From Thermoleophilia bacterium (GTDB lineage: Bacteria; Actinomycetota; Thermoleophilia; BMS3ABIN01): 64,000 bases of DNA. Below the pieces are notes generated by a model, which made no database searches, was not told the DNA's origin, and saw only the letters and a program-made list of their open reading frames with translations. Position 1 is the first letter of the stretch; each line of letters begins with the position of its first letter. The translations under genes were made by a program, and so were the position numbers. Positions 11,071 through 58,501 of this stretch are shown here, piece by piece. The stretch spans positions 5,955-69,954 of the forward strand of contig JACWAM010000018.1 of NCBI GenBank assembly GCA_014874265.1. Direction: 5' to 3'.

Positions 11071-11108
11071 AGCTGCTCTGGTTTGAGTGGCAAAGATGCT
11101 CGCACCGC

Positions 11109-11149
11109 AGCTCATCTCCTCTGACCCGTCGGGCAGGATGAGCTTTTTT
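11109..11149 (+). terminator. intrinsic terminator (riboswitch expression platform)
   Basis: agctcatctcctctgacccgtcgggcaggatgagct followed by TTTTT. Long GC stem with a T-run. Confidence 0.75.
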
Positions 11150-11218
11150 ACGCTCCCATCGGGAAGCCAAGCGCAAGCAAAGCAGCGACGCGGTTTGTCC
11201 ATTGAGCTGGCAGGAACA

Positions 11219-12521: not shown

Positions 12522-13538
12522 ATGGAACAATCTTTCACATCGGGAGGCAGTCCGGGCGCTAACGCGGCGGAAGTGGTGGCGCGCAAAGCCGGCGAGTCAC
12601 TCAAGAGCAATGAAACCTGGATCGTCAGGGAGTGGATCAAGGGGATCATTGACGATCTTGGTCTGCTTTCACTGAAAGAATTTCCCAGCGGCGAGCTGGC
12701 AGGCAGTCTTCCGGGGATGATCCAGGCAATAGCCAGAGCCGTTTCTGACCCCGGTGAGGACCTCGCGGGAAACGCTGATTTGCAGGACGTGGCGGCGCGC
12801 CTGGCGGCGCTCAGGCGGGAAGAGCCAGCGGTCGCCAAGCTGATTGACGACCTGTCACTGCTTAAGAAGGTAATTCTGGCAGCGGCCGCCACGGATCTCA
12901 GGCGCTCGGACCTCGCCGTCCTTGACGTTGTTCAAAATCTTGACGACGGTTTTCGCCACCTGTTTAAGACAGGCATCGAAGCCTACTTCGAGCGCCACTC
13001 GGAAGAGCTGCAGCGGCAGGCCGACACCGACGCGCTCACCGGCCTCTACAACGTCCGCTTTTTTAGGCACCAGCTCCACCGGAATCTGGAAATGTACAAG
13101 CGCTACCGCATCCCTTTTTCGCTTCTGATGGTCGACTTGGATAAACTCAAGCAGCTAAACGATGTCCGCGGTCATGTCGCGGGAGACCTCGCCCTTAAGC
13201 ACCTGGCCAATATCATGACCGGCGAGAAACGGGAGACCGATGTTGCCGTCCGTTACGGCGGTGATGAGTTTTTCCTGCTGGCTCCCGGAACAACGGCCGA
13301 GGATGCCGAGCGCCTGGCGCGCCGGATAATCGACCGGGTAAAAGCGCTCAACCTGAGCACCTCCGGACGCGAGATGACCGGCGCCTCCATTGGCGTCGTC
13401 TGGTGCCCTGGAGACGGCACAGATGTTGGCACTCTGCGGGCAAAGGCGGACCGCGCCCTCTACCTGGCCAAATCGATTGGCGGCGCCGCGGTGGCGCATT
13501 ATGTCGAGTTCAGCGTGCAGCCGCAGATTGTGTTTTAA
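12522..13538 (+). CDS. diguanylate cyclase (GGDEF) with N-terminal sensor domain
   Basis: Motifs RYGGDEFFLL, HVAGDLALK and DALTGLYNVRFF. Confidence 0.85.
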   Translation: MEQSFTSGGSPGANAAEVVARKAGESLKSNETWIVREWIKGIIDDLGLLSLKEFPSGELAGSLPGMIQAIARAVSDPGEDLAGNADLQDVAARLAALRREEPAVAKLIDDLSLLKKVILAAAATDLRRSDLAVLDVVQNLDDGFRHLFKTGIEAYFERHSEELQRQADTDALTGLYNVRFFRHQLHRNLEMYKRYRIPFSLLMVDLDKLKQLNDVRGHVAGDLALKHLANIMTGEKRETDVAVRYGGDEFFLLAPGTTAEDAERLARRIIDRVKALNLSTSGREMTGASIGVVWCPGDGTDVGTLRAKADRALYLAKSIGGAAVAHYVEFSVQPQIVF

Positions 13539-19538: not shown

Positions 19539-20474
19539 TTAGATATCGCACACCTCATCCATCGGGACGTGGTGAGGCCTTTCCTTGCATAAGTCTACTT
19601 CGCCGGCATAAACCTGGTTTTTGCCGAACTTCTTCGCTTTATACATACGGGCGTCGGCTATCTGCACCAGCCGGTCGGCCAGATCGGCATCGCGGCCGAA
19701 AGTGGCAATTCCAATCGAAACAGTGATGCTGCGCTTGATATTGGGATCGGCAAAGGTCGAGCACCGTTCCTCAATGCTGGCGCGGAGGCGCTCGGCTACC
19801 CGGAATGCGGTCTCAAATTTGCAGCCCAGGATCAGGGTAAACTCCTCGCCGCCGTAGCGGGAGGCGATGTCTTCGCCACGCGCCTCGAGCTGGATTGTCC
19901 GGGCTACTTTCTGGAGCACGTAATCGCCTTCCTGGTGGCCGAACTGGTCGTTGTATTCTTTGAAATCATCAATGTCGAGAAAGAGCACCGTCAGCCGCGT
20001 GCCGTCGGTTTTCAGATTGCTCACTTTATTGACCAGGTAAGTCTGAAAAAAGCCATGTGTGTAGAGATTTGTCAAATCATCGGTAGTGGATTGCCGTCTC
20101 AGTTTGAGGGCTTCCACGTGTTCCGTAGTGAACATATAGTAAAAGCCGGTAACGAAAAGTATCACGAAGACGGCCTCGATGGATTCGTATAACCCTTCGA
20201 TTTCAAGGCCGCCAAGTTCCCGGAGGGCGCCGATGACCTCGGCGATGCCGAAGGTCATGGCCGCCAGGCTGAGAAATAGCCATGATCTTTTTCTGATGTC
20301 GAGGGAGATGCCGGGAAGCACTCTAATGGCGAAATAAAAGGCAACCAGCGCCCCCGTCATGTTAAACACCTCAATCATTGCCGGAAAAAGCTCTTCCTGC
20401 CTTCCGGCCGCTTCGGCAACGTCGCGTCCGCCAAAACCCGCAAGCAGTGCATTTATGTGAAATAAAATACTCAT
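19539..20474 (-). CDS. membrane-anchored diguanylate cyclase (GGDEF)
   Basis: Motifs RYGGEEFTLIL and QEGDYVLQKVA after an N-terminal multi-TM region. Confidence 0.85.
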   Translation of the reverse strand: MSILFHINALLAGFGGRDVAEAAGRQEELFPAMIEVFNMTGALVAFYFAIRVLPGISLDIRKRSWLFLSLAAMTFGIAEVIGALRELGGLEIEGLYESIEAVFVILFVTGFYYMFTTEHVEALKLRRQSTTDDLTNLYTHGFFQTYLVNKVSNLKTDGTRLTVLFLDIDDFKEYNDQFGHQEGDYVLQKVARTIQLEARGEDIASRYGGEEFTLILGCKFETAFRVAERLRASIEERCSTFADPNIKRSITVSIGIATFGRDADLADRLVQIADARMYKAKKFGKNQVYAGEVDLCKERPHHVPMDEVCDI

Positions 20475-23588: not shown

Positions 23589-24830
23589 TCAGCTCGCGGC
23601 TTCGCAGTCACATCCCTGAGAGGAGTTCCCCGCCGAGCACTTCTTATTGCCGCGCTTGTAGACGGGCGACATGCTCCTGAGCCGCTCGGCGACGGCCGCG
23701 ATAGTCTCCAGGGCATAATCCACATCTTCCTGAGTATCTGCCTTGGCCATCGTAATCCTCACCGAGCCATGCGCGAGCTCTGCCGGCAGGCCCAGCGCCA
23801 GCAGGATGTGCGATGGCTCCAGACTCCCTGACACGCAGGCGGAGCCGGTAGAGACATAGACGGGCCTGGCGTCACCGGCCGTCGGGTATGACAGCGACAG
23901 CATGATCGACTCGCCTTCTATCCCCTCGATGGAGAAGTTGACATTGCCCGGCAGTCGCTCGGTCCGGTGCCCGTTGATGCGGATGTCATCAATGTTACCC
24001 TCAACCCAGTCAAAGATGTGGTTCCTGAGTCCGGCAAGCCGCGTCGCCTCCGCTTCGAGAGAGTGGCGGGCAATCTCTGACGCCTTACCCATGCCGACAA
24101 TCCCGGGGACGTTATGCGTGCCGGCGCGACGCTTCTTTTCCTGAGTGCCGCCGTGCAGGAGAGGCGTTATCCTGACGCCGTGTCTGATGTACATGGCTCC
24201 GACACCCTTAGGACCATAGAACTTATGCGCCGATGATGAAAGCAGGTCAACCCCAAGATGATTGACATCGACAGGGATGTGTCCAACGGTCTGGGCGGCG
24301 TTTACGTGAAAGATCACGCCCTTTTCCGAGGTTATTTTGCCGATCGCGGTGATTGGCTGGATGGTGCCGATCTCGTGGTTGGCGTGAACGATGGAAACAA
24401 GCACGGTGTCATCCCGGATAGCGGCGGCAACCGCTTCGGGATTGACCACGCCGTCGCTGTCAGTAGGAAGGTAGGTTACTTCCCAGCCTTTTTTCTCGAG
24501 GTAACGCAGAGGCATCAGGATTGAATGATGCTCCGCCACATCGGTGATGATGTGCCGGCCCTTGGATTCCAGCGCGTCTGCAACTCCCTTGATCGCCCAG
24601 TTGTTGCTTTCAGTGGCGCCGCTGGTAAAAAAAATGTCCTTTTGATCGGCGCCGATCAGGTCCGCAAAACTCTGCCTTGCCGCATCGATTGCCTGTTTTG
24701 CCTGGGAGCCCATCGAGTAGAGAGTGGCCGGACTGCCAAATTTCTCTGAAAGCCAGGGCTCCATCGCGTCGATTACTTCTGGGTCCGCCCGGGTAGTGGC
24801 GGCGTTGTCTAAGAATATGGCGTTTTTCAT
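23589..24830 (-). CDS. iscS: cysteine desulfurase (IscS/NifS)
   Basis: 413 aa with the PLP lysine region SSSAHKFYGPKGVG and the SGSACVS active-site Cys loop. Confidence 0.9.
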   Translation of the reverse strand: MKNAIFLDNAATTRADPEVIDAMEPWLSEKFGSPATLYSMGSQAKQAIDAARQSFADLIGADQKDIFFTSGATESNNWAIKGVADALESKGRHIITDVAEHHSILMPLRYLEKKGWEVTYLPTDSDGVVNPEAVAAAIRDDTVLVSIVHANHEIGTIQPITAIGKITSEKGVIFHVNAAQTVGHIPVDVNHLGVDLLSSSAHKFYGPKGVGAMYIRHGVRITPLLHGGTQEKKRRAGTHNVPGIVGMGKASEIARHSLEAEATRLAGLRNHIFDWVEGNIDDIRINGHRTERLPGNVNFSIEGIEGESIMLSLSYPTAGDARPVYVSTGSACVSGSLEPSHILLALGLPAELAHGSVRITMAKADTQEDVDYALETIAAVAERLRSMSPVYKRGNKKCSAGNSSQGCDCEAAS

Positions 24831-24890: not shown

Positions 24891-25565
24891 TCATACCCTT
24901 TTTCTGATCATGAATTTCATCTGGCCGCCGAATTCTTCCCGGCAGATAAACTCGTTTCCAGTCCCAGTGCACCATGCCGGTATATCAGCTTTGGAACCTT
25001 CATCGTCGGCCCACACTTCCAGGATCTCCCGGTGCCGCAAATTCCTCATCTCCTCCGCAATCCTGACAATCGGCAGCGGGCAGGAGTACCCAATACAGTC
25101 GAGCTTTCGGCTCGGGGTTTCGCCGGCCGCCGGGCCTGTTTTCAATCCCGGGCCGAGCCGGCCGGAGATTACATCTTTCAGGCTGGTTTTGCCCAGCACA
25201 TCTTCGCTCACGCTTTGCAGCCTTGACCAGACCCCGGCCAGAGTGCAGCCATCATGGAAATCGCAGCCATCAACTGCTCCTCCGGCGCCGCAACTTGTAG
25301 GAACAACCGGGCCTTGCAAAACATTGACGACCTTGAGCAGGCTGATTTGCTCGGGAGCCTTTCCCAGCAAATAACCTCCCGCTGGTCCCCGTGTGCTTTT
25401 CAGCAGGCCGCCACCCACCAAAGCCCTGAGAACCTGTGTCAGAAACGGCAAAGGTATCCGCTGCCGCTCAGCAATGCCGGTTCGACCAACCGGCTCGCTG
25501 CCTTCGCGAGTAGCAATATCTATCAGGGCCCGCAGGCCGTATTCGCTTTTTGATGAAATCAGCAC
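24891..25565 (-). CDS. Rrf2-family (IscR-like) transcriptional regulator fused to a C-terminal TusA-like sulfur-carrier domain
   Basis: Rrf2 N-terminus (V)LISSKSEYGLRALIDIA with Cys ligands SCGAGGAVDGCDFHDGC. C-terminus LDCIGYSCPLPIVRIAEEM...ILEVWADDEGSKADIPAWC...FMIRK aligns with E. coli TusA (CPxP motif). Start uncertain: GTG 25565 or ATG 25604. Confidence 0.65.
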   Translation of the reverse strand: MLISSKSEYGLRALIDIATREGSEPVGRTGIAERQRIPLPFLTQVLRALVGGGLLKSTRGPAGGYLLGKAPEQISLLKVVNVLQGPVVPTSCGAGGAVDGCDFHDGCTLAGVWSRLQSVSEDVLGKTSLKDVISGRLGPGLKTGPAAGETPSRKLDCIGYSCPLPIVRIAEEMRNLRHREILEVWADDEGSKADIPAWCTGTGNEFICREEFGGQMKFMIRKRV

Positions 25566-25869
25566 GGGATAAAGTTTAATAATGTAGACCGTGTGAGTCA
25601 ACATTAATCAGGCCATTTATACCCGGTGGCTTCATTGGTCAAACAGTTTACTGTCTGATAAGACAGCTAAATATAAGGGATCCTTATGTTGGAATAATGT
25701 GTTTTTTTTGCGGGTGATTTATCAATCGGCATGGCTGGGGGCTGATTTTGGCCCGGGGAAAACTCCCGGATTATCCAGTTCTTTGCCAAGGCCTGACGCG
25801 ATATTCCCAAAGCCGGGCCAGCCCGGAGTCTGTCCAGCAGTTATCCCGCTGTGGCAGGCAGAACTTTTG

Positions 25870-38877: not shown

Positions 38878-39117
38878 TTGAATATCAAGGAGGATTTCCT
38901 GCTGGACGCACGCGGTCTCAAGTGCCCCATGCCTTCGGTAAAGACCGCCCTCGCGCTTGAGCAGCTGGGCGGGGGCGGGATTGTCAAGGTGATGATTGAC
39001 GATCCGGTAAGTAAAAAGGATCTGCCGGCGTGGGTGCGCGGAAACGGCCACCAGGTGTTAGGCATTGACGACCGGGATGGTTTTGTTGAGGTATACGTTA
39101 AAAAATCCGGAGGTTAG
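38878..39117 (+). CDS. tusA: TusA-like sulfurtransferase
   Basis: 79 aa, LDARGLKCPMPSVKTALALEQL, CPxP motif. Confidence 0.8.
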   Translation: MNIKEDFLLDARGLKCPMPSVKTALALEQLGGGGIVKVMIDDPVSKKDLPAWVRGNGHQVLGIDDRDGFVEVYVKKSGG

Positions 39118-39118
39118 C

Positions 39119-39448
39119 ATGAATCAACACCACCCCGGTTCAAAAAAGGAAGACAAGCTGTTAGAATTAGAAGACAGGCCGCCGTTGGCGGCTTCTGCTC
39201 TTCATCTGGTCGTGCAAGGGCGGGAGAAGGTTTATCTTGGTCCCCGGGATATGCGGTCTTTGCTGGAAGCTCTGGGCGAGAACCTGTCATACGCCAATGT
39301 GCGTCTCAACGGCACGGTCCTAAACAGGCGGGATTTTGAAAATATCCCTTTGCAAGACGGGGACAGAGTAGATTTCCTTTATTTTATGGGAGGGGGAAGT
39401 TGTTCGATCTCTCCGAAGCTGAAATCGAGCGTTACTCCAGGCATATAA
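39119..39448 (+). CDS. ThiS/MoaD/CysO-like sulfur-carrier protein with an encoded C-terminal tail beyond Gly-Gly
   Basis: ...VRLNGTVLNRRDFENIPLQDGDRVDFLYFMGGG-SCSISPKLKSSVTPGI*. The beta-grasp core ends GGG and the frame runs 18 codons further, overlapping the moeB start. GGAGG RBS precedes ATG 39119. Confidence 0.6.
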   Translation: MNQHHPGSKKEDKLLELEDRPPLAASALHLVVQGREKVYLGPRDMRSLLEALGENLSYANVRLNGTVLNRRDFENIPLQDGDRVDFLYFMGGGSCSISPKLKSSVTPGI

Positions 39449-40230
39449 TCCTGCCCGAGCTGGGTGGCGCGGGGCAGCAGAAACTGAAACAGGCGAGCGT
39501 CCTTGTGGTTGGCGCCGGCGGGCTTGGATCTCCGGCGCTGCTTTACCTTACCGCGGCGGGAGTGGGCCGGATTGGCGTCATCGAGGACGACGTTGTCGAT
39601 TTGACCAATCTTCAGCGCCAGGTTCTACATGGCACCTCTGACGTGGGACGGCCGAAGGTGGTCAGCGCCAGCGAGACGATGAAACAGCTCAACCCGCATG
39701 TCCAGATCGATGTTTACAATCAACGCCTCACCAAGGAAAACATTTTTGACATCATTGAAAAATATGATGTTATTGTCGACGGCGTTGATAACTTTCCGAC
39801 GCGTTACCTTTTAAACGACGCCTGCGTCATGAAGCAGAAAACGCTGGTGGAGGGCGGCATACTCCGCTTTATGGGACTGATCATGAGTATTCGCGGTGGC
39901 GAGACCGCCTGCTACCGCTGCGTTTTTGAGGATCCACCTCCGCCCGGAGCTGTGCCCAGTTGCGCTGAAGCTGGAGTCCTGGGCGCGGTCGCCGGCGTGG
40001 TCGGGACCATGCAGGCCACCGAAGTGCTCAAAATTCTGACTGGATTCGGGCAGCCGCTTTATGATCGGCTACTCCAATTCGACGCCGAGGAGCTCCGTTT
40101 CCACGAGGTTAAGGCAAGGCGCAATCCAAAATGCCCGGTTTGCGGCGAAGATCCCAGTATTACCGAGCTCATCGAGTATGAATACACCTGTGAAACCCAG
40201 ACTCCGCTAGCTGATGCCGGGGGGGATTAA
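39400..40230 (+). CDS. ThiF/MoeB-type E1-like adenylyltransferase (no rhodanese domain)
   Basis: TTG start after RBS ggaggggga. (M)FDLSEAEIERYSRHIILPELGGAGQQKL...VGAGGLGSP with C-terminal CxxC...CPVC Zn site. Confidence 0.8.
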   Translation: MFDLSEAEIERYSRHIILPELGGAGQQKLKQASVLVVGAGGLGSPALLYLTAAGVGRIGVIEDDVVDLTNLQRQVLHGTSDVGRPKVVSASETMKQLNPHVQIDVYNQRLTKENIFDIIEKYDVIVDGVDNFPTRYLLNDACVMKQKTLVEGGILRFMGLIMSIRGGETACYRCVFEDPPPPGAVPSCAEAGVLGAVAGVVGTMQATEVLKILTGFGQPLYDRLLQFDAEELRFHEVKARRNPKCPVCGEDPSITELIEYEYTCETQTPLADAGGD

Positions 40231-40651
40231 TCTTACCCGCTCCCAGCTCGAGGCTGTTTTTGAGCACGCGAAGCGGCAGCAGCCTGAAGAAGCATGCGGT
40301 ATTCTCGCGGGCGATCCGGACGGAAGCGTGCGCCGCGTCTTTTTGATGGAGAACGCCGAGCACAGCTCGATCCTGTATATGATGGACTCGACCGAGCAGT
40401 TCGAGGTTTTTGATCAGATGGAAAAGGATGGCCTTGAACTGGTCGCCATCTTTCATTCTCACCCCCACTCTCCCGCCTTTCCCTCTGCCCGCGACTTGGA
40501 ACTGGCTTTCTATCCGGAATCGCTATACCTGATCGTGTCTCTCATGGATGACGAGCCTCAGTATCATGCCTTCAGGCTCGCCAGAGGCCAGGTTGCTGAA
40601 GCCCCGCTGGTTATTCTGGATGATATAAAAGAGAGCCTTGATGAAGCCTGA
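40214..40651 (+). CDS. JAMM/MPN+ metalloprotease (Mec+/CysO-processing type)
   Basis: EACGIL...HSHPHSPAFPSARD, the JAMM motif. Confidence 0.75.
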   Translation: MPGGINLTRSQLEAVFEHAKRQQPEEACGILAGDPDGSVRRVFLMENAEHSSILYMMDSTEQFEVFDQMEKDGLELVAIFHSHPHSPAFPSARDLELAFYPESLYLIVSLMDDEPQYHAFRLARGQVAEAPLVILDDIKESLDEA

Positions 40652-47827: not shown

Positions 47828-48154
47828 CGGACATCCTCTGCAGTTGCGGACCGGTTTTTATGGTTTTTATCGCTGCCCAGATGTTCGCAGTTTTGTTGCG
47901 GCCCAAACTGAATTTAGCACCCTCCGGCAATCAATGTCAACCAGACAGGACAATGGGGCGACTATTTGGCCAGACCGGAAAATGATCGACCGGAACGTGG
48001 CATTAAATGAGCTGATGGGATGATTTTGACGGTTGTTTCGCTCAATGAGCGTCACCACCGTTGATCACGCTACCCGGTTTGACTGTGACGGGATCGCCTG
48101 ATATCTTTTTTCCTGGAAATTGACGGGGCCGGGTGCCTTTTTCTTCTATCTCGG

Positions 48155-48335
48155 CAGGTAAACCTGCTTGGATGGAGTTCTAAGGAGAATAGGGAAGCCG
48201 GTGCAAATCCGGCGCGGGCCCGCCGCTGTAACCGGGAATCATCCCCTTAGTTACGTCACTGGACGCAAGTCTGGGAAGGCGGGGATTGTCGAAACCCGGG
48301 AGCCAGAAGACCTGCCCGGCAAACTGTAAATGCCG
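48155..48335 (+). promoter_or_regulatory. cobalamin (AdoCbl-type) riboswitch aptamer
   Basis: aatAGGGAAGCCGGTGCAAATCCGGCGCGGGCCCGCCGCTGTAACCGGG ... GTCACTGG ... GGGAAGGCGG ... GAGCCAGAAGACCTGCCCGG. B12-box and flanking conserved blocks are present; this does not match the TPP consensus. Confidence 0.75.
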
Positions 48336-48444: not shown

Positions 48445-49719
48445 ATGGCTACACAATTGGAACGGGCCCGGGCGGGCATTATTACAACAGAAATGGAGAA
48501 GGTGGCAGCTGAGGAGGACCTGTCGCCGGAGCAGATCCGGCAAGGCATGGTTGATGGTTCAATCGTGATTATCAGCGGGAACGGCCGCGCTGAAACCGCC
48601 ACCGGGATTGGGAGAGGCTTAAGAACGAAGGTCAATGCCAGTATTGGCACCTCATCCGACCTGATCGACATTGAGATGGAGCTGGAAAAGGCGGCTGTCG
48701 CGGCGGATACGGGCGCCGATACGCTCATGGAGCTAAGCACCGCCGGCGATCTTGATGATGTTCGCCGGCGCGTCCTGGCCGCAGTTTCCGTGCCGGTGGG
48801 AAATGTCCCTCTGTACCAGGCCAGCGCCGAAGCTGCGGCCAGTCTGGGCTCGAATCTGAAGATGACGGAAGATCTTCTGTTTGAGTTGGTGGAAAGGCAG
48901 TCAGCCGATGGTATCGGTTTCATGGCGATCCACTGTGGTATTAACCGGCTGACGCTAAGCGTCCTCAAGTCGCAAGGAGGGCGCAGCGGCGGTCTGGTAA
49001 GCCGTGGCGGGGCGTTTATGTCGGCATGGATGCAGGCGACTGATTCAGATAACCCGCTTTACGAACAATTTGACCGTCTGATTGAAATTCTGCATCAATA
49101 TGACGTCGTGCTGAGCCTGGGCAACGGCATGCGCGCCGGCGCCGTTAGCGACGCTACCGACAAGGCACAGATCCAGGAGTTAATCATCAACTGTGAACTG
49201 GCGGACCGGGCTCGGGACGCCGGGGTACAAGCGATGCTGGAAGGTCCCGGTCATATCCCCATCGACGAGATCAAGGCCAATGTCATCCTGGAGAAGAAGA
49301 TGAGCGGCGGCAAACCGTTTTATATGCTGGGGCCGATCACGACTGATGTCGCTCCTGGATATGACCATATTACGGCGGCTATCGGGTCTGCCTGGGCAGC
49401 CGCCTACGGTACGGATTTCATCTGTTACGTGACGCCAGCCGAGCACCTGGGCCTCCCCTACCCTGACGATGTGCGCCAGGGGGTCATGTCGTCCCGGATT
49501 GCCGCTCACGTGGGCGATATGATCAAGCTGGGCCGCCGCCAGGCGGATTACGAAATGGGCAAGGCCCGGCGGGATCTGGATTGGGAGAAGCAGTTTGCGC
49601 TGGCGCTTGATCCGGAGCAGGCCCGTTCGGTTCGCGATGCGCGCCCCGGCTCCGGCAGCGAGGGCTGCAGTATGTGCGGCGATCAGTGCGCTTTAAAGGT
49701 CGGAGAAGCCGCCTGCTAG
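48445..49719 (+). CDS. ThiC-family radical-SAM enzyme; candidate 5-hydroxybenzimidazole synthase (BzaF-like) rather than thiamin ThiC
   Basis: 424 aa ThiC fold with C-terminal CSMCGDQC Cys cluster. Preceded by a cobalamin riboswitch. Confidence 0.6.
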   Translation: MATQLERARAGIITTEMEKVAAEEDLSPEQIRQGMVDGSIVIISGNGRAETATGIGRGLRTKVNASIGTSSDLIDIEMELEKAAVAADTGADTLMELSTAGDLDDVRRRVLAAVSVPVGNVPLYQASAEAAASLGSNLKMTEDLLFELVERQSADGIGFMAIHCGINRLTLSVLKSQGGRSGGLVSRGGAFMSAWMQATDSDNPLYEQFDRLIEILHQYDVVLSLGNGMRAGAVSDATDKAQIQELIINCELADRARDAGVQAMLEGPGHIPIDEIKANVILEKKMSGGKPFYMLGPITTDVAPGYDHITAAIGSAWAAAYGTDFICYVTPAEHLGLPYPDDVRQGVMSSRIAAHVGDMIKLGRRQADYEMGKARRDLDWEKQFALALDPEQARSVRDARPGSGSEGCSMCGDQCALKVGEAAC

Positions 49720-49819: not shown

Positions 49820-50287
49820 TCAGATAAACAGGCTCATGTCGGCATCGACGGCGTAATCAAGGAACGCGCCGGCGCCACAGGTCGGCTCTACTTCATCAAT
49901 CAGATCTTCGGGATTAATGCCCATGATGTCGAGCGTCAGCTGACAGGGCCACATTTTGACACCGGTTTCATGACATATCTCGATAAATTCAGGGATAGAC
50001 GGCGTGTTTGACTTCTTGATCATATCCTTCATCATCTTGGTTGCCATCGCCGTCATGCCAGGAAGCATACCAACAATGTTCGGCACGGACACTGGCATCG
50101 CTGGATTGGCGATTGGCGACACCTTTAGGTTGGCATATTTCTTTTTGTTGACAATATCCAGCCCGTAAAAAGTGAAAAAGATGCCGCATTCCATGTCCAG
50201 CGCCGCGGCGGTGCTAGCCAGGATAAATACCGGGTACGCCATATCCAGCGTTCCCTTGGACGCGATAATCGCTAAACGCTTAGCCAT
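49820..50287 (-). CDS. DsrE/DsrF-like family protein (COG2044-type)
   Basis: 155 aa, MAKRLAIIASKGTLDMAYPVFILASTAAALDMECGIFFTFYGL. Confidence 0.65.
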   Translation of the reverse strand: MAKRLAIIASKGTLDMAYPVFILASTAAALDMECGIFFTFYGLDIVNKKKYANLKVSPIANPAMPVSVPNIVGMLPGMTAMATKMMKDMIKKSNTPSIPEFIEICHETGVKMWPCQLTLDIMGINPEDLIDEVEPTCGAGAFLDYAVDADMSLFI

Positions 50288-50295
50288 CTAGTAGC

Positions 50296-50550
50296 TCACT
50301 TCCCTTTCCGAACAAAGAAGTGAAATACTTCACCGCCTTCTTCTTCAGTGAAGCCCAGAAACTCGTTACCCGACCTTTTTGCCCACGCCGGCATATCCCC
50401 CTTCGAACCGGCATCAGTACCGATTACCTCGAGCACCTGGCCGGGTTCAAGAGCGTCCATCGCCTTTTTTGCCTTCACTACCGGCATCGGGCAACACAGC
50501 CCCTTTACGTCAAGAACAGAATCCGGCTTTACATCGATTGTCTCTGCCAT
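50296..50550 (-). CDS. tusA: TusA-like sulfurtransferase
   Basis: MAETIDVKPDSVLDVKGLCCPMPVVKAKKAM, CPxP motif. Start chosen at MAETID, the internal Met of track ORF 50296..50580. Confidence 0.8.
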   Translation of the reverse strand: MAETIDVKPDSVLDVKGLCCPMPVVKAKKAMDALEPGQVLEVIGTDAGSKGDMPAWAKRSGNEFLGFTEEEGGEVFHFFVRKGK

Positions 50551-50918
50551 TATTCCTCCCAGGTGGTTGAAATTAAACATCTATTGGACGCCAGAAAACT
50601 GAAAAGGGTCCAATAATGACCGGCCGTTTATCATAAAATATTTTTGGCCCTAATTACCACCTCCTCCAGGCCGGTTTTTTTACTGATAGTTAAGAAACAC
50701 TGAACATTTCCTGTTATCGTTCGATTCGGGCACAGCGACTGGCAGTTGGATAGATGGATTATTTTTTATTATATCATAGCCATTTGCAGGCAAATTGTCG
50801 CAAGAGCTTACTCAGGGAGTCGGGAAATTTAACTAAAGTTAATTTATCATATCTGGCAATTTTGAAGCTTTGGGCTATAATTCATATGCACGGGGTTAAT
50901 TTGAGTGAGGGGATAGGA

Positions 50919-51965
50919 ATGGTCAAGAAGTTTTTTTCCATCACAATCATCGCCGCGATTGTTTTCGCGGTTGCCTTCTTTGCCACAGGATGCTCGAGCC
51001 TGCCCGATAATGCTGCGGCGTCCGTCAACGGGGTAATCATCACCAAGGCTGCCGTCAGGGACAGGCTGCGTCAAATTGTTGGCATGTCGCCGGGGATGAT
51101 CTCGCCTGATCCCAGTAGTCAGCAGTACAGGGACAGCTTGCGGGATATCACCTCTCAAATGGTAAATGAGGAAATTGAGCGGCAGGAAGCGGCGAAAAGA
51201 AACATAACCGTCTCCGATAATGAGGTTACCAAGGAGCTGGATCAGGTCATCGAAGATAACTTTTACGGCGACGCCTCCAAACTGCAGGATTTTCTCAGTA
51301 AACGCAACGTCACGGTAAACGACGTGCGGGCTGACTTGAAGCGCCGCATTATGCACCAGAAGGTGTTGGATTCAGTCAAGGCCGGGGTAAAGGTCACCGA
51401 CGCCGATGTCCAGGCGGTGTATCAGCAAAACATTAGCAATTATGTTCATCCGGAACGGCGGCAGGTACGCGAGATCGTATTGGCTGATCAGGCCACCGCA
51501 CAGCAGATCGAAAGCCGCCTCGCCGGCGGCGAGGATTTCTCCACCCTTGCCGGCCAGAATTCGATAGATCCAAAGACAAAGAATAACGGTGGCTTTGTAG
51601 GCATAGTCAGCAAGGATTCCCTGCCTCCGGCCGTGGGCGACGCCGCGTTTTCGCTGAAAGTGAACCAGGTGTCGGCGCCGGTGCAGACAGATCAGGGGTG
51701 GTACATCGTTAAGGTGGAGCTGATCCAGCCGCCGTTGAACCAGTCTTATGACAGTGTCAAGAAACAGCTGACTGATTCAATCACCAATCAGAAATTCTCG
51801 CAGGCGTGGGCGGATTATGAAAAACAGATTCATGACCGCTACACCGTGCAGTTTGCCGACGGTTACTCGCCCCGGACCACAGCGGAAACGGGAACGTCCT
51901 CGACGGGGTCTTCCCTTGGTAGCGGCCAGGCCGGCCAGACACAAACCACTCCCCAGGCTCCGTAA
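50919..51965 (+). CDS. PrsA/SurA-like peptidyl-prolyl isomerase lipoprotein (parvulin domain)
   Basis: MVKKFFSITIIAAIVFAVAFFATGCSS lipobox, parvulin GGFVGIVSKDSLPPAVGDAAFSLKVNQVSAPVQTDQGWYIVKVE. RBS GAGGGGA before ATG 50919. The track ORF starts further upstream. Confidence 0.75.
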   Translation: MVKKFFSITIIAAIVFAVAFFATGCSSLPDNAAASVNGVIITKAAVRDRLRQIVGMSPGMISPDPSSQQYRDSLRDITSQMVNEEIERQEAAKRNITVSDNEVTKELDQVIEDNFYGDASKLQDFLSKRNVTVNDVRADLKRRIMHQKVLDSVKAGVKVTDADVQAVYQQNISNYVHPERRQVREIVLADQATAQQIESRLAGGEDFSTLAGQNSIDPKTKNNGGFVGIVSKDSLPPAVGDAAFSLKVNQVSAPVQTDQGWYIVKVELIQPPLNQSYDSVKKQLTDSITNQKFSQAWADYEKQIHDRYTVQFADGYSPRTTAETGTSSTGSSLGSGQAGQTQTTPQAP

Positions 51966-52235
51966 GAACCGTCACGTCAGGCAGCGAAAATCCCTGTCCC
52001 GACGGTTAATTCCATCCGTAAACAAGGCCGGGCAGATTTACGCTGCCCGGGCCGCGGTCCCTCTTGCCGCCGCCGCCGGCCAATGATAAAATCTGGAACT
52101 CTTTAGCGATTCAGCTGTTGCCGTCTCCTGGCATTAATCAAGATATTATCAAATGAGGCCGCTTCCGGGCGGTAACCTGAGTTTTATTGCAGCTATGCAC
52201 GGTTAGCGTCAACGCTGAAGATCGGAAACGTTATT

Positions 52236-53177
52236 TTGGGGGGCATCATCAACGCCGCAGTCATCGAAACCAAGGATCTTTCCAAGATTTACGGTTATGG
52301 CGATAGCGAAATAGCAGCTGTTGACAAATTGAGTTTGAGCGTTGGTAAAGGAGAGATTGTTGGTATTCTCGGTCCGAATGGCTCCGGCAAGACGACGGCG
52401 ATGCGGATGCTGGCAGGAATCGTCTTCCCCACTTCCGGCACCGTCAGTTTATTGGGAAGGCAGCCGAATGACCTTTGGGTAAAGCACCGTATCGGTTACC
52501 TTCCCGAGACGCTCCAGTTCAGATCGTCGATCCGGGCGGATGAATTTCTTGACTTTCATGCCCAATTATATGGGATCGGCAAGGACGCGAGAAGTCGCCG
52601 GATTGATGAAGTTCTCCAAGCGGTGGGCTTGATAGAGAACGCGCAATCGCGTGTCAGGACTTTTTCCAAGGGGATGCTGCAAAGAATTGCTCTGGCTCAA
52701 GCCATCCTTCATGAGCCGCAGCTCTTGTTTCTGGATGAGCCTGCGTCGGCCCTTGATCCCGCCGGCCGCCGCCATTTGCGGGAGCTGCTCTTGAGCATGC
52801 AAGAGAGAGGAGCAACAATTTTCATCAACTCGCATCAGCTGTCCGAGGTGGAGTTGATCTGCTCGCGCGTCGGCATTATGCGGCGGGGCAGATTAATCAA
52901 AATTGACGATCTCGAATCAATGTTAAAACCGGTTCATCAGGTGGATGTCAAGGTTACAGGTTTGCCGGAATCATCCCTGGCACTAATAAAAAAGCTGGCG
53001 GTCAAGGTTGTTGACAAAGGCGGCGGAGTTTTAACTGTCAGCCTTAGGCGCGAGGAAAATGTCTCCGAGCTGGCCGAAATCATCGTGCATAGCGGCGCCG
53101 ACTTGCAAGAATTTACGCCGCGCAGGCAGGATCTGGAGTCGGCATTCCTGGAGGAGATTGAGGGAGTGGAGAGATGA
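52236..53177 (+). CDS. ABC transporter ATP-binding protein
   Basis: GPNGSGKTT Walker A, LSKGMLQRIALAQAIL signature, LLFLDEP Walker B. Confidence 0.85.
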   Translation: MGGIINAAVIETKDLSKIYGYGDSEIAAVDKLSLSVGKGEIVGILGPNGSGKTTAMRMLAGIVFPTSGTVSLLGRQPNDLWVKHRIGYLPETLQFRSSIRADEFLDFHAQLYGIGKDARSRRIDEVLQAVGLIENAQSRVRTFSKGMLQRIALAQAILHEPQLLFLDEPASALDPAGRRHLRELLLSMQERGATIFINSHQLSEVELICSRVGIMRRGRLIKIDDLESMLKPVHQVDVKVTGLPESSLALIKKLAVKVVDKGGGVLTVSLRREENVSELAEIIVHSGADLQEFTPRRQDLESAFLEEIEGVER

Positions 53178-53986
53178 AGGCATGGCCGTTGGCTCTTTAT
53201 ACCCTCAAGGTAACGCTGAAATCCAAAGCCACAATCGCGGGCCTGTTTGTCAGCCTCATTTACCTGACGATCATTCCTGCTATCAGCTCAGCCGGGGAAG
53301 GCACCGCTGTTTCCGGAAACGTGGGAGCCGGCGCCGCGGGACTGGATTTTCTCAGGTTTGCTCTTGGAGGCCTCGATTTTATTGGCATGATAATGGCGGT
53401 TTTTATTTCATTGGGCTCGATCCATAACGAGATTGAGAGCGGGATGATGGGAGTCATCGCCACCAAACCAATCCGCCGCTGGCAGATAATTGCCGGCAAA
53501 TGGACGGGACACGCCCTCTTGATGACAATTTATGTTTTTGCTATTGGATTCATTCTCTGGCTGCCGCTAACACTGAGCACGGGCATACACGCATGGAGTT
53601 TTGCTCCAGCCACCGCCCTGGTTGGCTTGAACCTGATGGCGATGATCGCGCTGACGCTGGCCCTGTCAATATACATGCCGGCCGTCTCCAATGGCCTTGT
53701 TGTTTTTATAATATTTGCCCTCACATCGAGTCTGCGCGTTGTAAACGCCATCAGTGGCTTCTCCAGCGGCATTCCAGGCGCTGTCAGCGCCGATCTGTTC
53801 CGTATGTTGCTGCCGGTGGGGCCGGTCGCAGCCGAAGCGGCCAACCTGATGGGAGGCAAAGTTGACCCAGACGCCCAGACCGCCTTTTTCCTGACGGGAA
53901 CCTGGTCATTTGTATATGAGATCATTTATATCGGCGCTCTGATTTTGATTGCCTCGCTGGCTTTTCAGAAATTGGATCTTGACTGA
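53174..53986 (+). CDS. ABC-2-type transporter permease
   Basis: 270 aa with 6 TM helices, translationally coupled to the ATPase. Confidence 0.65.
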   Translation: MKAWPLALYTLKVTLKSKATIAGLFVSLIYLTIIPAISSAGEGTAVSGNVGAGAAGLDFLRFALGGLDFIGMIMAVFISLGSIHNEIESGMMGVIATKPIRRWQIIAGKWTGHALLMTIYVFAIGFILWLPLTLSTGIHAWSFAPATALVGLNLMAMIALTLALSIYMPAVSNGLVVFIIFALTSSLRVVNAISGFSSGIPGAVSADLFRMLLPVGPVAAEAANLMGGKVDPDAQTAFFLTGTWSFVYEIIYIGALILIASLAFQKLDLD

Positions 53987-54196
53987 GTTACCTTTTGGAT
54001 ATCGTTTCAAATTTCGGGTTTTGCTCCATGTTGCTGTTTTGTTTAACGTTTGAGGTTAAAGGTTAGGCGTCTGACCAGAAATTTGCTAAAACATTAAACG
54101 TTAAACGTTCAGCTGAAGGTATATCTTGTTTCGACTGCGCCACGAATCAGCTATCCGGGAATCAAGGCCTTCAATACTATGTTCATTTAGGCTAGA

Positions 54197-54700
54197 ATGT
54201 TGCTCATGTTTGGCAGGAGCCTCAAACTGATTATACTGACGGTGATGGCGCCGGTTTTCCTGATGCTTGCTTCGGGGTGCGGGGGTAACGCTGGCGTCAG
54301 GACGAGCACCTCCAAGGTTGTGGCAAATAAACCGAGCCCCACCGCGCCTGCCGCAAATAATTGCGCGTCAGCTCCCGGAATCATTCCCAAAACCGCACCC
54401 GGCGTGCCGATGATCGTCGAGTTTTACCGGGACACGTGACTTACCTGCCAGCAGGAGAAGCCCATCGTGGATGAGCTGGAAAAAGACTATCAGGGAGAAA
54501 TAACCTTTGTCAGGCTGGATGAAGAAAGCCCGTCATCCGGCCAGGCGGTGGTATGCCAGGCAAGCAAGTTCGGCCTTGCAAGCACTCCCGGCTTTGTTTT
54601 TTATGACGCCACGGGTAACAAGACAGGTGCGGTCGATTCCTTCCAGACGCGAGCGCAGCTGCAACAGCAAATAACCGACCTGCTGCAAGGAAACGCATAA
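54197..54700 (+). CDS. thioredoxin-fold lipoprotein with in-frame TGA at 54437..54439 (candidate selenoprotein, U-L-T-C redox motif)
   Basis: Track ORFs 54197..54439 and 54467..54700 share one frame, separated only by TGA. The joined protein ...PMIVEFYRDT-[TGA]-LTCQQEKPIVDELEKDYQGEITFVRLDEES... aligns with this genome's TrxA ([40 protein letters not shown]), and TGA falls exactly on the first Cys of CxxC. N-terminal lipobox LASGCGG. Confidence 0.6.
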
Positions 54701-54721
54701 ATCCTGGATTCTTCTTTAAGG

Positions 54722-55138
54722 TTAAATTATCCGGTCGGCGGCCGCCAGTTCTTGAAAGTTAACGCTTCTTAGCCTTTCTTCCAGGTCAGCTGTCATCTTG
54801 TGCCAGAACTGATGCAGACGGCAGGCCTGGCCTTCATTAAAGCACTCACCGGGACGGATCAAACAGCGGTTTAACAGGATCTGCCCTTCGACCGCTTCAA
54901 CCACCTCGAGCAGATTGATCTGGCTTGGCAGGCGCGAAAGCGAGACGCCACCCTGGCTTCCCCTCATGGTCCTGATCAGGCCCGCCCGGGCCAGCGCCCG
55001 GATGATTGACGGCAGATAGTTCTCGGGAATATTTTGGCCCCGGGCTATATCCTCCGTGTGGAAATATCTTCCCGGCGACGCTTTGGCCAGCTCAACCATG
55101 GTTCTGACGGCGTAATCAGCCTGACGGCTTAACTCCAT
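54722..55138 (-). CDS. Rrf2-family transcriptional regulator (3 Cys)
   Basis: MELSRQADYAVRTMVELA... with Cys ligands CLIRPGECFNEGQAC. Confidence 0.8.
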   Translation of the reverse strand: MELSRQADYAVRTMVELAKASPGRYFHTEDIARGQNIPENYLPSIIRALARAGLIRTMRGSQGGVSLSRLPSQINLLEVVEAVEGQILLNRCLIRPGECFNEGQACRLHQFWHKMTADLEERLRSVNFQELAAADRII

Positions 55139-55305
55139 TCTTCCTCCCCCGGGGTCAATGACACTAATAAAAATAATAAAATTAGATTGGTAGACTTTAG
55201 ATCAGAAATGGAATCGTGTCAAATCAAAGTGAGCAGCCGGGAGAATTGTGATATCCGTTAAGTCGAGTTGAAGCGCTGCGCAGGCGAAGGGCGGAGGCGG
55301 TTTTC

Positions 55306-55785
55306 CTAGAACTCGGATACGAGGAATTTATACGTTTCTTCGAGAGCTTGCGGGACGACGCGGATGTCGTCCAGCACCGGCATAAAATTATTGTCTCCCT
55401 GCCAGCGGGGAACAACGTGCATATGCAGGTGTTCCTTTATGCTGGATCCCGCGACCTCCCCCAGGTTCAGGCCGACGTTTAAGGCTTGCGCCGCCATCTT
55501 CTTCTTGAGCACGGCGGCACATTTTTGCGTCAACTCCATGACTTCGGCGGCGGTAGGCGTGTCCAGGTTTTCCAGTTCCGAAATGTGCGGGTACGGAGCT
55601 ACCATCAGATGGCCGGGATTGTATGGATAGAGATTCATAATGACAAAAGCAAGCCGGCCGCGATAAAGAACCAGATTTGCCTCATCGTTATCCTCTTCGA
55701 TCACGCGGCAAAAAAGACAGGTTTCTTCCTTCTCACCCAGGATGTATGATATGCGCCACGGCGCCCAGATCGGCCTGTCAGTCAT
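55306..55785 (-). CDS. HIT-family (histidine triad) protein
   Basis: CLFCRV...HLHMHVVPR. Confidence 0.8.
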
Positions 55786-55841
55786 TCCCTAACCCCAGTT
55801 ACAAGTTAAAAGTTAACGGTTTCCAGTTATTGTGTTTACGT

Positions 55842-55865
55842 AAAACGCTTCAGGTTAAGCGTTTA
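55842..55865 (-). terminator. hairpin aaacgctt-caggtt-aagcgttt followed by a U-rich tract downstream of tRNA-Arg(CCG)
   Basis: 8-bp stem. On the minus strand it is followed by UUUACG. Confidence 0.4.
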
Positions 55866-55887
55866 TCGTTTTCAACCATCTGCTCTT

Positions 55888-55964
<77 letters not shown>

Positions 55965-56040
55965 ATTGAGACAGTTTATTGATGGTGAACTTTGGACGGT
56001 CGTATCTGCCATCTATCATCCACAATCTGCCATCCGTTTT

Positions 56041-56134
56041 TGGCGGAGAGGGAGGGATTCGAACCCTCGAGACGAGTCAACCCCGCCTACACGATTTCCA
56101 GTCGTGCTCCTTCGGCCAACTCGGACACCTCTCC
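56041..56134 (-). tRNA. tRNA-Ser (anticodon GGA)
   Basis: 94 nt, long variable arm, anticodon loop CUGGAAA, GGAGAGG acceptor stem, CCA encoded. Confidence 0.9.
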
Positions 56135-56198
56135 CTGAAGCGGATGCTGGATGCTGGAAAAACCGGATCCTGGTCCCAGTGTCTTCTGTCCGCTTTTT

Positions 56199-56292
<94 letters not shown>

Positions 56293-56375
56293 ATCTTAAA
56301 AATGTGTCACGTTTCGCTTTAACGATCTTAGCATTAAACGTTGAACTTGCTTAACGATCTAGTTTAGCGGAAAGG

Positions 56376-57647
56376 ATGGGCAGGGGAAAAGTAGAACTAA
56401 TATCCACTGCCATGGCGATAACCAGCATTGAGAAATATGAATCCTTGATCGGGGTAGAAGCCACCGAGCGCATCCTCCGCAAAGCGGCGCCGCTAATGGG
56501 GGCTCGGGTGGCATGCGTCAATTCGACCTATTACGGAGGCGGGGTTAGCGAGATTCTCGATCCATTGACGTTGCTTTTTGATAGTGTTGGTATCTCGGTG
56601 GAATGGCGTGTAATCATGGGGTCGCCCGACTTCTTCAGCATTACCAAGAAGATGCACAACGCCCTGCAGGGCGACCGTATCAACCTCTCCCTCCGGAAAA
56701 AGCGCATATATGAACGGACCACGTTTGAAAACGCGGTTCGCAACCAGCTTGACCACGATTATGTCATAGTACATGATCCGCAGCCGCTGGCTTTAATCGA
56801 GCACTATTCCCGGAAGGGTCCCTGGATCTGGCATTGCCATCCTGATATGTCGCAGCCAAATCCGGAGATCTGGAGCTACCTGCGCCCCTTTGTTGATCAA
56901 TATCAGGCCGCCATCTTTAGCATTCCGGCGTACCGCCAGGAACTGGACATCCCGCAGCTGTTTATTCAGCCGGCAATTGATCCCTTTTCCATAAAAAACA
57001 GAAAGCTCGACCGCAAGGTCATCGCGGACCGGCTCCGGCGTTACGGGATTCCAACCGATCTGCCGCTGGTGGCGCAAGTTTCCCGCTTTGACCGCTGGAA
57101 GGATCCCGAAGGGGTTATCGAGTCTTTCCGGCTGGCGCGAAAGCAGGTAGACTGCACCCTGGTGCTGCTGGGAGATGTCGCCACCGATGACCCTGAAGGC
57201 GAGGAGGTCTACCGTTCGCTGCTTGGCTCCCGTGAAGAGCGCATCATTATCCTCAGCCGTCAGGATTCAGCTCTGGTAAATGCGTTGCAGCAAAGCGCTA
57301 CGGTTATTTTGCAGAAATCCATCAAGGAAGGGTTCGGCATCACCGTTTCGGAAGCGTTGTGGAAAGGAACCCCGGTGATTGGTGGCAACGTGGGCGGCAT
57401 TCCATATCAGATCAAGGATGGCATCAATGGTTTTCTGGTTTCTACGATCGAAGAAGCGGCGGATAGAATAGTCCGGTTGCTGCATGACAGCGAGCTTCGC
57501 CGGCAGATGGGACATGGCGGCCGGAGGAGGGTCAAGGAGCAGTTTCTGATGAGCCGGCTGCTGGAAGATTATCTGGACCTGCTGGGATCTTTCGAGACCG
57601 TTTACCGGATGAAACAGGAGCCGCCGGCGGGATCGGAAGGCGGCTGA
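56376..57647 (+). CDS. glycosyltransferase family 4 (GT-B, retaining) protein
   Basis: 423 aa, N-terminal NSTYYGGGVSEIL and C-terminal EGFGITVSEALWKGTPVIGGNVGG, the EX7E-like motif region. Confidence 0.7.
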   Translation: MGRGKVELISTAMAITSIEKYESLIGVEATERILRKAAPLMGARVACVNSTYYGGGVSEILDPLTLLFDSVGISVEWRVIMGSPDFFSITKKMHNALQGDRINLSLRKKRIYERTTFENAVRNQLDHDYVIVHDPQPLALIEHYSRKGPWIWHCHPDMSQPNPEIWSYLRPFVDQYQAAIFSIPAYRQELDIPQLFIQPAIDPFSIKNRKLDRKVIADRLRRYGIPTDLPLVAQVSRFDRWKDPEGVIESFRLARKQVDCTLVLLGDVATDDPEGEEVYRSLLGSREERIIILSRQDSALVNALQQSATVILQKSIKEGFGITVSEALWKGTPVIGGNVGGIPYQIKDGINGFLVSTIEEAADRIVRLLHDSELRRQMGHGGRRRVKEQFLMSRLLEDYLDLLGSFETVYRMKQEPPAGSEGG

Positions 57648-58138
57648 TGGGAGGCTAAGCGCCGGGTCAGGAAGAACTCCCGAAGCAGAGACGCCGATTC
57701 CCCGGCCAATATTCCCCCGGTGACTGTCACTCTGTGATTCAGGCGCGGGTCGCCAACGATATCCATCAGGGTGCCGGCTGCGCCCGCCTTGGCATCCGGG
57801 GCTCCATAAAAGATGTTGTCAATGCGGGCCTGATAGATAGCGCCGGCGCACATTGGGCATGGCTCGATGGTAACATAAATATTACACCCGGTTAATCTCC
57901 AGCCACCCAACTGCTTCGCGGCCCGCCTGATTGCCAGGATCTCCGCGTGCGCGGTCGGGTCCCGGCGCTGCTCCCGCTCGTTTCCAGCGGCGGCAAGCAC
58001 CTCTCCCCTCCTCTCGATTACGGCTCCGACCGGCACATCTCCATTGACACCGGCCTGACGAGCCTCCTCCAGAGCCAGAAACATAAATTGCCCGGAGGCT
58101 GGAGGCTGGAGGCTGGAGGCTGGATAGAAAGAACTCAT
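57602..58138 (-). CDS. tadA: tRNA-specific adenosine-34 deaminase
   Basis: HAEILAIRRAA...VTIEPCPMCAGAI CDA zinc motif. Probable true start MFLALEEARQAG (58084); the 5' extension is encoded by a heptamer repeat. Confidence 0.85.
   Translation of the reverse strand: MSSFYPASSLQPPASGQFMFLALEEARQAGVNGDVPVGAVIERRGEVLAAAGNEREQRRDPTAHAEILAIRRAAKQLGGWRLTGCNIYVTIEPCPMCAGAIYQARIDNIFYGAPDAKAGAAGTLMDIVGDPRLNHRVTVTGGILAGESASLLREFFLTRRLASHQPPSDPAGGSCFIR
58094..58123. repeat. tandem heptamer (GAGGCTG) x4 at the 5' end/upstream of tadA
   Basis: Seen directly. Confidence 0.8.
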
Positions 58139-58232
58139 TCAGAGGATTTTGAAGACGTGGTGGGCTCCATTAGCACTTGGTTTAGATTTTGGTTTGATCT
58201 AAATTCAAAAATCGGTGTCGGCACCTGCTTTT

Positions 58233-58309
58233 TGGCGCGCCCGACAGGATTCGAACCTGTGGCCTTTGGATTCGTAGTCCAACGCTCTATCCAGCTGAGC
58301 TACGGGCGC
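58233..58309 (-). tRNA. tRNA-Arg (anticodon ACG)
   Basis: 77 nt, anticodon loop CUACGAA. Nearly identical backbone to the Arg(CCG) tRNA. Confidence 0.9.
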
Positions 58310-58405
58310 TTAAAAGCGGGACTTTAAACACCAGATGCTGGACATTTGGATGAACCTGGAAGCAATAATTGCAATGTCCGAAGTCTAACATCCAATATCC
58401 GCTTT

Positions 58406-58501
58406 TGGCGGAGAGGGAGGGATTCGAACCCTCGAAGGAGGCTCAAAACCCCCTTAATCGCTTAGCAGGCGATCGCCTTCAGCCGGCTCGGCCACCTCTC
58501 C
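58406..58501 (-). tRNA. tRNA-Ser (anticodon GCU)
   Basis: 96 nt, long D-loop and variable arm, anticodon loop CUGCUAA. Confidence 0.85.

Follow-up and report, generated by a model that had tools for sequence, protein, structure and literature searches.

The window analysed here, a stretch of 64,000 nucleotides (nt) from contig JACWAM010000018.1 of a Thermoleophilia bacterium, carries genes for an ABC transporter ATPase and an ABC-2 family permease, followed by a thioredoxin-like gene that is interrupted by an in-frame TGA codon and by a convergent gene for an Rrf2-family regulator (Table 1). An earlier reading of this DNA, made from the letters without database searches and referred to here as the sequence-only reading, had placed the thioredoxin-like gene behind an ABC-2 transporter and facing an Rrf2 regulator, and the genes for the ABC ATPase, the PF12679 permease and the convergent Rrf2 protein were located accordingly. 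It had also claimed that the thioredoxin-like gene is divided into two open reading frames (ORFs) of the same frame by the TGA alone. Both the translation, in which this TGA is the only internal stop of the 167-codon frame, and the ORF list, which gives same-frame pieces of 80 and 77 amino acids (aa) on either side of it, agree with that claim. As judged from the sequence comparisons described below, the whole frame very probably constitutes one functional gene for a thioredoxin-fold protein in which the UGA encodes selenocysteine (Sec, U).

Table 1. Positions in the window of the thioredoxin-like selenoprotein gene, its proposed functional elements and its neighbours (L numbers, related loci; P0011, a Cys-containing homolog; A2 and A5, alignments)
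Feature	Position	Strand	Evidence or relatives
ABC transporter ATPase, first gene of the module	52236..53177	+	53-54% identity to syntenic genes in L091 and L194
ABC-2 family permease (PF12679), directly 5' of the selenoprotein gene	53174..53986	+	Syntenic in L003, L091, L194 and L197
Inverted repeat, AAACGTT-rich, arms of 17-20 nt, 80-88% complementary	54041..54109		Within the 210 nt that separate the permease and selenoprotein genes
Predicted thioredoxin-like selenoprotein gene, complete, product predicted to be lipid-anchored	54197..54700	+	167 codons, then TAA; same gene with TGA in L001, L002 and L003
Alternative start codon (ATG) of the selenoprotein gene	54206	+	
Predicted signal peptide ending in lipobox L-A-S-G-C (Cys28 codon, 54278-54280)	54197..54280	+	Read from the sequence
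Cys56, first of an extra, subfamily-specific Cys pair	54362..54364	+	Conserved in L091, L194, L201 and P0011
UGA codon 81, proposed to be read as Sec; opens the redox motif U-L-T-C	54437..54439	+	TGA/Cys pairing in homologs; alignment with TrxA
Resolving Cys84 (TGC) of UxxC	54446..54448	+	Invariant column in A2 and A5
SECIS-like hairpin inside the ORF	54459..54477	+	Synonymous-site conservation and co-occurrence, in TGA homologs only
Cys120, second of the extra, subfamily-specific Cys pair	54554..54556	+	
Codon for cis-Pro (P131) of the thioredoxin fold, 3' of the UGA	54587..54589	+	Invariant in A2 and A5
Rrf2-family regulator, convergent, C-x6-C-x6-C motif	54722..55138	-	Syntenic in L001-L003, L091, L194 and L201

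The stop codon had been described as falling exactly on the nucleophilic Cys of a CxxC motif, and BLASTP comparison with the genuine, separate TrxA encoded in the window (8986-9312) agrees, the first Cys of WCGPC in TrxA being paired with the stop codon (E = 2e-10, 28% over 69 aa). When Cys was substituted for the stop, the joined protein matched the Pfam family Thioredoxin (PF00085) at E = 1.6e-8 and 34.9 bits, above the gathering threshold of 23.5 bits, and the profile of the family to which it belongs matched solved classical thioredoxins over the entire fold (E = 1e-25). The family alignments are invariant at U81, at C84 and at the cis-Pro P131. Assignment to the cytoplasmic TrxA equivalog (TIGR01068) was ruled out, the score being 36.2 bits against a cutoff of 96.8. 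The joined protein gave 0 matches in a word-indexed search of proteins, and no second UxxC or CxxU candidate was found in the 64-kb window.

To obtain homologs, the 86 residues encoded 3' of the TGA were used as the query of an exhaustive search by HMMER, and 34 proteins were returned. Many of these matches are ORFs of 71-80 aa that start just past the CxxC position, and several are full-length Cys proteins. The DNA of five short-ORF homologs had TGA at the aligned codon in all five cases, within the motifs YSDY(TGA)MAC, QSEY(TGA)MAC, GST(TGA)PAC, AEW(TGA)GSC and FRDT(TGA)PVC. A scan of species representatives, with one genome per bacterial or archaeal species and the pattern KPIV[DE][EGK][LIV][EA]K, gave 69 confirmed loci, mostly in Chloroflexota and some in Actinomycetota and Acidobacteriota. 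At the aligned codon, 59 of these loci have TGA, 10 have TGT or TGC, and none has TAA or TAG, a TGA:Cys ratio of 59:10 that is biased because the search peptide is partly imposed by the RNA element itself. Over genomes and metagenomes together, TGA occupies the aligned codon in at least ~185 homologous loci, and TAA or TAG never does. Past the TGA, both the frame and the residues of the thioredoxin fold, cis-Pro included, are conserved, and the Cys-containing homolog nearest to the subfamily of the window is P0011, with the motif CPSC. The sequence-only reading had held such a placement of TGA to be unlikely by chance and had proposed that orthologs be compared for Cys, Sec or stop at this codon; only TGA or Cys codons were found there, and three further assemblies (L001, L002 and L003) carry the same TGA, results that support its view of the placement.

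The second line of evidence is a hairpin resembling a bacterial Sec insertion sequence (SECIS), located within the codons for K-P-I-V-D-E-L of the window gene. The family form of this hairpin, CCCAUC-GUN-GAUGGG, is near-invariant in the TGA homologs. Among 62 distinct TGA sequences, codons 8-12 after the UGA, which encode P-I-V-D-G, were CCC in 60, ATC in 59, GTN, GAT in 59 and GGG in 54, and the third base of the Val codon is the only one of them that varies. The third-position entropy was 0.2-0.3 bits in the hairpin codons versus 1-1.9 bits in the codons that flank them. In the remainder of these genes CCC accounts for 30% of the Pro codons, ATC for 51% of the Ile codons, GAT for 46% of the Asp codons and GGG for 24% of the Gly codons, and the invariant cis-Pro is encoded by all four Pro codons across the family. 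In ten Cys homologs the K-P-I-V-D/E peptide is the same but is specified by mixed codons, and no hairpin is present, the mean minimum free energy (MFE) being -1.1 kcal/mol versus -9.0 kcal/mol in the TGA homologs. Two loci, L007 and L008, keep hairpins of differing sequence in which both sides of a pair have changed, the loop of L008 being GGUCG. In a metagenome scan for the hairpin in which TGA, TGC or TGT was permitted at the Sec position, TGA was present in all of the at least 120 contigs listed. The signature has one hit in the window versus 0.03 expected by chance, and a scan of a viral collection with it gave no match.

The window version of the hairpin, AGC.CAUC-GUG-GAUG.GCU, is also found in the subfamily members L003, L091, L194 and L197. 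It consists of a lower stem AGC/GCU, a C.A mismatch and an upper stem CAUC/GAUG (54463-54466 with 54470-54473), and its apical loop GUG (54467-54469) starts 27 nt after the UGA; RNAalifold predicts the inner 4 base pairs (bp) only. In the published model of the bacterial SECIS (bSECIS), the loop has 3-9 nt and begins with G followed by G or U, the upper stem has 4-16 bp, the distance from the UGA is 16-37 nt and the MFE is -7.5 kcal/mol or lower (PMC13188914). The loop, stem, loop G-U and spacing of the window hairpin are all within these limits. The element thus resembles the fdhF-type SECIS of E. coli and the bSECIS consensus in being a hairpin inside the ORF, at that distance from the UGA, whose small loop opens with G followed by U. 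It differs from the fdhF type in that the family element is very short (in most members, a stem of 6 bp closed by a loop of 3 nt; in the window, stems of 4 bp and 3 bp separated by a mismatch) and in that its sequence is almost invariant across phyla. A pairing of ccagc with gcugg, suggested in the sequence-only reading, is broken in L091, L194 and L197, and what is conserved instead is the inner CAUC-GUG-GAUG together with AGC/GCU.

Several results weigh against this hairpin as a SECIS and against the decoding of the UGA as Sec. Taken alone, the window hairpin, with its C.A mismatch, reaches -6.0 kcal/mol and misses the bSECIS energy cut, while most family hairpins lie between -8 and -13 kcal/mol. 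The 64 nt after the UGA fold at -12.1 kcal/mol, no better than shuffled sequences (z = 0.22). The fold downstream of the UGA, which had been put forward earlier as a check, therefore gave nothing for the single sequence and yielded the SECIS-like hairpin by comparison, and the evidence for the hairpin is comparative. Because the helix hardly varies, it offers little covariation, and the correlation at the pair 24-40, a helix extension, is not significant (p = 0.11). In addition, neither selA, selB, selC or selD, searched among the ~55 annotated ORFs of the window, nor a tRNA-Sec was found in the 64 kb. A tRNA-Sec was likewise not found in 60 related loci.

As the search for sel genes and a tRNA-Sec covered the 64-kb window, the UGA might also be read without Sec, whether through a near-cognate Trp or Cys, through Cys carried on tRNA(Sec) when selenium is scarce, or with the two halves serving as separate polypeptides, and the hairpin is also compatible with a generic stimulator of read-through. 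This alternative is nevertheless improbable, because the codon lies exactly at the catalytic Cys and alternates with Cys codons only, because the spacing and the G-U loop of the hairpin are those of bacterial SECIS elements, and because a split at the active site would wreck the thioredoxin fold. Moreover, TGA is the ordinary stop of 16 of the 49 Pfam-confirmed genes in the window, which indicates that it is not reassigned genome-wide.

Still less credit is given to the possibility that a nonsense mutation has killed an ordinary gene for a CxxC thioredoxin-like lipoprotein and left a pseudogene, as the two ORFs returned by gene callers and the thermodynamic weakness of the window hairpin might suggest. 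The recurrence of TGA, and never of another stop, in so many independent loci, the frame and fold residues retained downstream, and the conservation of the hairpin at the nucleotide level in TGA members only all argue against decay. So does the comparison with the closest relative, L003, an ENA contig from a diverged strain, in which the downstream 77-aa ORF is 92% identical and the DNA ~95% identical to that of the window. The two differ by 11 synonymous and 12 non-synonymous changes, and the ratio of non-synonymous to synonymous substitution rates (dN/dS) is 0.28 both 5' and 3' of the TGA, which shows that purifying selection constrains the two halves equally. A sequencing or assembly error at a TGT or TGC codon, for which nothing speaks beyond its prior possibility, can be dismissed for practical purposes, since the TGA is identical in two Logan assemblies from different runs, in which the 77-aa ORF is identical in DNA to that of the window, as well as in the ENA assembly of the diverged strain, and is found in all subfamily relatives. 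The interpretation of the TGA as a Sec codon, first offered in the sequence-only reading, is thus supported by the Sec/Cys pairing, by the dN/dS values and by the hairpin restricted to TGA members.

If the gene is decoded by the mechanism established for bacterial Sec, SelB carrying Sec-tRNA(Sec) would bind the hairpin while the ribosome stands at the UGA, and Sec would be inserted at codon 81. The N-terminus, MLLMFGRSLKLIILTVMAPVFLMLASG-C28, appears to be a signal peptide with a lipobox, as concluded from a by-eye pattern check of the sequence; lipoboxes are commonly recognised by [LVI][ASTVI][GAS]C or a PROSITE-type pattern. The lipobox Cys is kept in L003, L009, L091, L194, L197 and L201, and the lipoprotein signal (LASGCGG) noticed earlier is therefore shared with the closest relatives. 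The product is predicted to be exported via this signal peptide, to receive its lipid at Cys28 and to stay anchored at the periplasmic face, where the selenol/thiol pair U81/C84 may function as a thiol-disulfide (selenenylsulfide) oxidoreductase.

An N-terminal anchor was found in all family members. The lipobox is also present in many metagenome members, and in most Chloroflexota members the anchor consists of one or two transmembrane (TM) helices. In the N-termini of Chloroflexota members (L016, L020, L023, L038 and others), the positively charged segment LLRNR follows TM1, and the likewise charged RRRPK lies between TM1 and TM2. These charges suggest that the thioredoxin domain could be on opposite faces of the membrane in the one-TM and two-TM Chloroflexota forms. 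The window's subfamily has a further pair of cysteines, C56 and C120, which is present in Sec members and in the Cys homolog P0011 and is missing from cytoplasmic TrxA. These two residues probably form a structural disulfide, which would fit an exported protein. An AlphaFold model of P0011, obtained without an alignment, was of low confidence, with a predicted local distance difference test score (pLDDT) of 58, and was not used for C56/C120.

Among distant relatives, L091 preserves the whole order of genes for the ABC ATPase, the ABC-2 permease, the Sec-thioredoxin, the convergent Rrf2 protein and HIT, followed by clustered tRNA genes (Arg, Ser, Ser, Arg, Ser), and L194, L197 and L201 preserve part of it. 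In these loci the neighbouring genes are 43-76% identical to those of the window, the values for the ABC ATPase, permease and Rrf2 genes being 43-56%. Positions 1-6401 of L091 and 49820-58501 of the window are syntenic for DsrE2, the ABC ATPase, the ABC-2 permease, the Sec-thioredoxin, Rrf2, HIT and five tRNAs, and the tRNAs common to both are Arg-ccg, Ser-gga, Ser-cga, Arg-acg and Ser-gct. The gap between the permease and selenoprotein genes measures ~50-65 nt in L091 and L194 versus 210 nt in the window, and the inverted repeat listed in Table 1 may be an inserted or regulatory element. The conserved adjacency of the selenoprotein gene to the genes for the ABC-2 exporter and for the Rrf2 protein with its Cys motif hints at a link with the exporter and suggests an envelope redox or detoxification module.

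The window also contains genes for QmoB, QmoC, DsrE2 and DsrE-like proteins, which indicate that the host is a sulfate-reducer type organism. The largest selenoproteomes known in bacteria are those of hosts of this type, and thioredoxin, DsbA-like and thiol:disulfide interchange proteins are among their selenoproteins (PMC1794560), in agreement with the earlier remark that thiol-oxidoreductase selenoproteins are known from sulfate reducers. Other gene neighbourhoods were seen elsewhere in the family. In ~10-11 Chloroflexota loci the gene for the anchored Sec-thioredoxin is flanked by an ordinary trxA (WCGPC) and a gene for a trxB-like flavin adenine dinucleotide (FAD) reductase (example coordinates among loci L010-L078 are 3941-4279 in L055 and 5308-6279 in L053), and in another 21-22 loci its flanking genes are a gene for a divergent GTPase resembling elongation factor G (EF-G) and a small methyltransferase-like gene. 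A partner of the CcdA/DsbD type, or any other universal neighbour, was not seen across the family loci.

Several known groups of proteins were compared with the predicted selenoprotein. Thioredoxin selenoproteins with a UxxC motif (PF00085) are listed as experimentally verified (PMC13188914 Table 1) and have been predicted in Geobacter and Anaeromyxobacter (PMC1794560). The window protein is like them in its thioredoxin fold, in having Sec for the N-terminal Cys of CxxC, in the existence of Cys homologs and in a SECIS within the ORF just 3' of the UGA. It is unlike them in that it stays at 36 bits versus the TrxA cutoff of 96.8 and has a predicted signal peptide and lipobox, replaced by TM anchors in some relatives, as well as in its motif T-U-L-T-C in place of W-C-G-P-C, its extra Cys pair and its ABC-2 neighbour. 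Selenoproteins of the 'Thiol:disulfide interchange protein' (PF13098), DsbA-like and DsbG-like types have been predicted in Deltaproteobacteria (PMC1794560; PMC13188914 Table 1), and these too are predicted exported UxxC thiol-disulfide oxidoreductases of the same kind of anaerobic hosts. However, the match of the window protein to PF13098 is below threshold (20.3 bits versus 27), a comparison made with model scores, and the family profile is nearest to classical thioredoxins.

SaoT (NF040730; bioRxiv 10.1101/2022.07.06.499078) is similar in being a thioredoxin-like UxxC selenoprotein encoded beside ABC transporter genes in anaerobes. Identity with SaoT was ruled out, the window protein having no NF040730 match at E<=1 and its relatives scoring 15-17 bits against a cutoff of 65; the transporter encoded here is of the ABC-2 exporter type, and none of the other SAO genes is present. 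CcmG/DsbE, ResA, TlpA and StoA share with the window protein a membrane-tethered thioredoxin domain, an N-terminal anchor and a likely role in extracytoplasmic thiol-disulfide exchange. Identity with DsbE/CcmG, ResA or TlpA was likewise ruled out, by a dsbE score of 16.6 bits against 123.15 and by ResA and TlpA scores far below cutoff in the relatives. Unlike the reductases of the CcmG/DsbE type, the window protein has Sec at the predicted active site, and cytochrome c maturation or CcdA/DsbD genes are absent from its vicinity.

None of the NCBIfam models scanned covers or names the family, and all of the thioredoxin models score far below their equivalog cutoffs. In the databases searched, the family is represented only by fragments labelled 'hypothetical protein', and for the Chloroflexota form 97-aa fragments only were found there and no full-length annotated protein. 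The split annotation of genes for UxxC thioredoxin-fold selenoproteins is a known problem. The gene described here is an unannotated new member or subfamily of the known UxxC thioredoxin-fold selenoproteins. A wider proposal, which we offer only tentatively and regard as rather doubtful, is that it would belong to a large uncatalogued family of Sec-thioredoxins, anchored by a lipid or in the membrane, which would extend over Chloroflexota, Actinomycetota, Acidobacteriota and sulfate reducers and be represented in public databases solely by paired hypothetical fragments. In that family the in-ORF SECIS would dictate the peptide K-P-I-V-D-G, and the subfamily of the sulfate reducers would provide a dedicated ABC-2 exporter with its selenol partner in the periplasm, beside a conserved convergent Rrf2 gene.

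Other features were noted elsewhere in the window. A cobalamin riboswitch (48139-48333, forward strand, 112.7 bits) lies directly 5' of a ThiC-family gene (48445-49719, forward strand), which scores 543 bits with the BzaB model (cutoff 700) and 585 bits with ThiC; this B12-regulated ThiC paralog suggests the synthesis of a benzimidazole lower ligand rather than of thiamine. A c-di-GMP-I-GGC variant riboswitch (cyclic di-GMP; 10987-11063, forward strand, 69.8 bits) is situated 5' of a 187-aa ORF without a Pfam match (11087-11650, forward strand), and near it are GGDEF genes (12522-13538 and 19539-20474) and an HD-GYP-like HAMP-GAF-HD gene (20538-23009). A gene for an Rrf2-TusA sulfurtransferase fusion (24891-25604, reverse strand) adjoins a class-V aminotransferase/cysteine desulfurase gene (23589-24830, reverse strand), and the window has three Rrf2 genes in all, starting at 24891, 37390 and 54722. 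A ThiS-like ORF and genes of the ThiF/MoeB family and with a JAB domain follow one another at 39065-40651 (forward strand), next to genes for a pyridoxal phosphate (PLP)-dependent, cysteine synthase-like protein and an Rrf2 protein, and this group resembles a system based on a sulfur-carrier protein. No Sec signature accompanies the TGA at 39337, which lies 5' of the ThiF gene and inside the overlapping ThiS-like ORF in another frame.

In conclusion, the gene is of a kind that would be expected and would not surprise a specialist, and knowledge of Sec decoding is unchanged by it. For the annotation of this gene and of hundreds of relatives, the comparison provides a signature consisting of TGA, N6, TGY, N9 and AAR CCC ATC GTN GAT GRG. 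The family is also a clear case of an RNA signal, the SECIS, that fixes both codons and a peptide motif across phyla. The envelope redox set of a sulfate reducer would gain a lipid-anchored, probably periplasmic, selenol-based thioredoxin, and its conserved pairing with an ABC-2 exporter provides a testable lead to its function.

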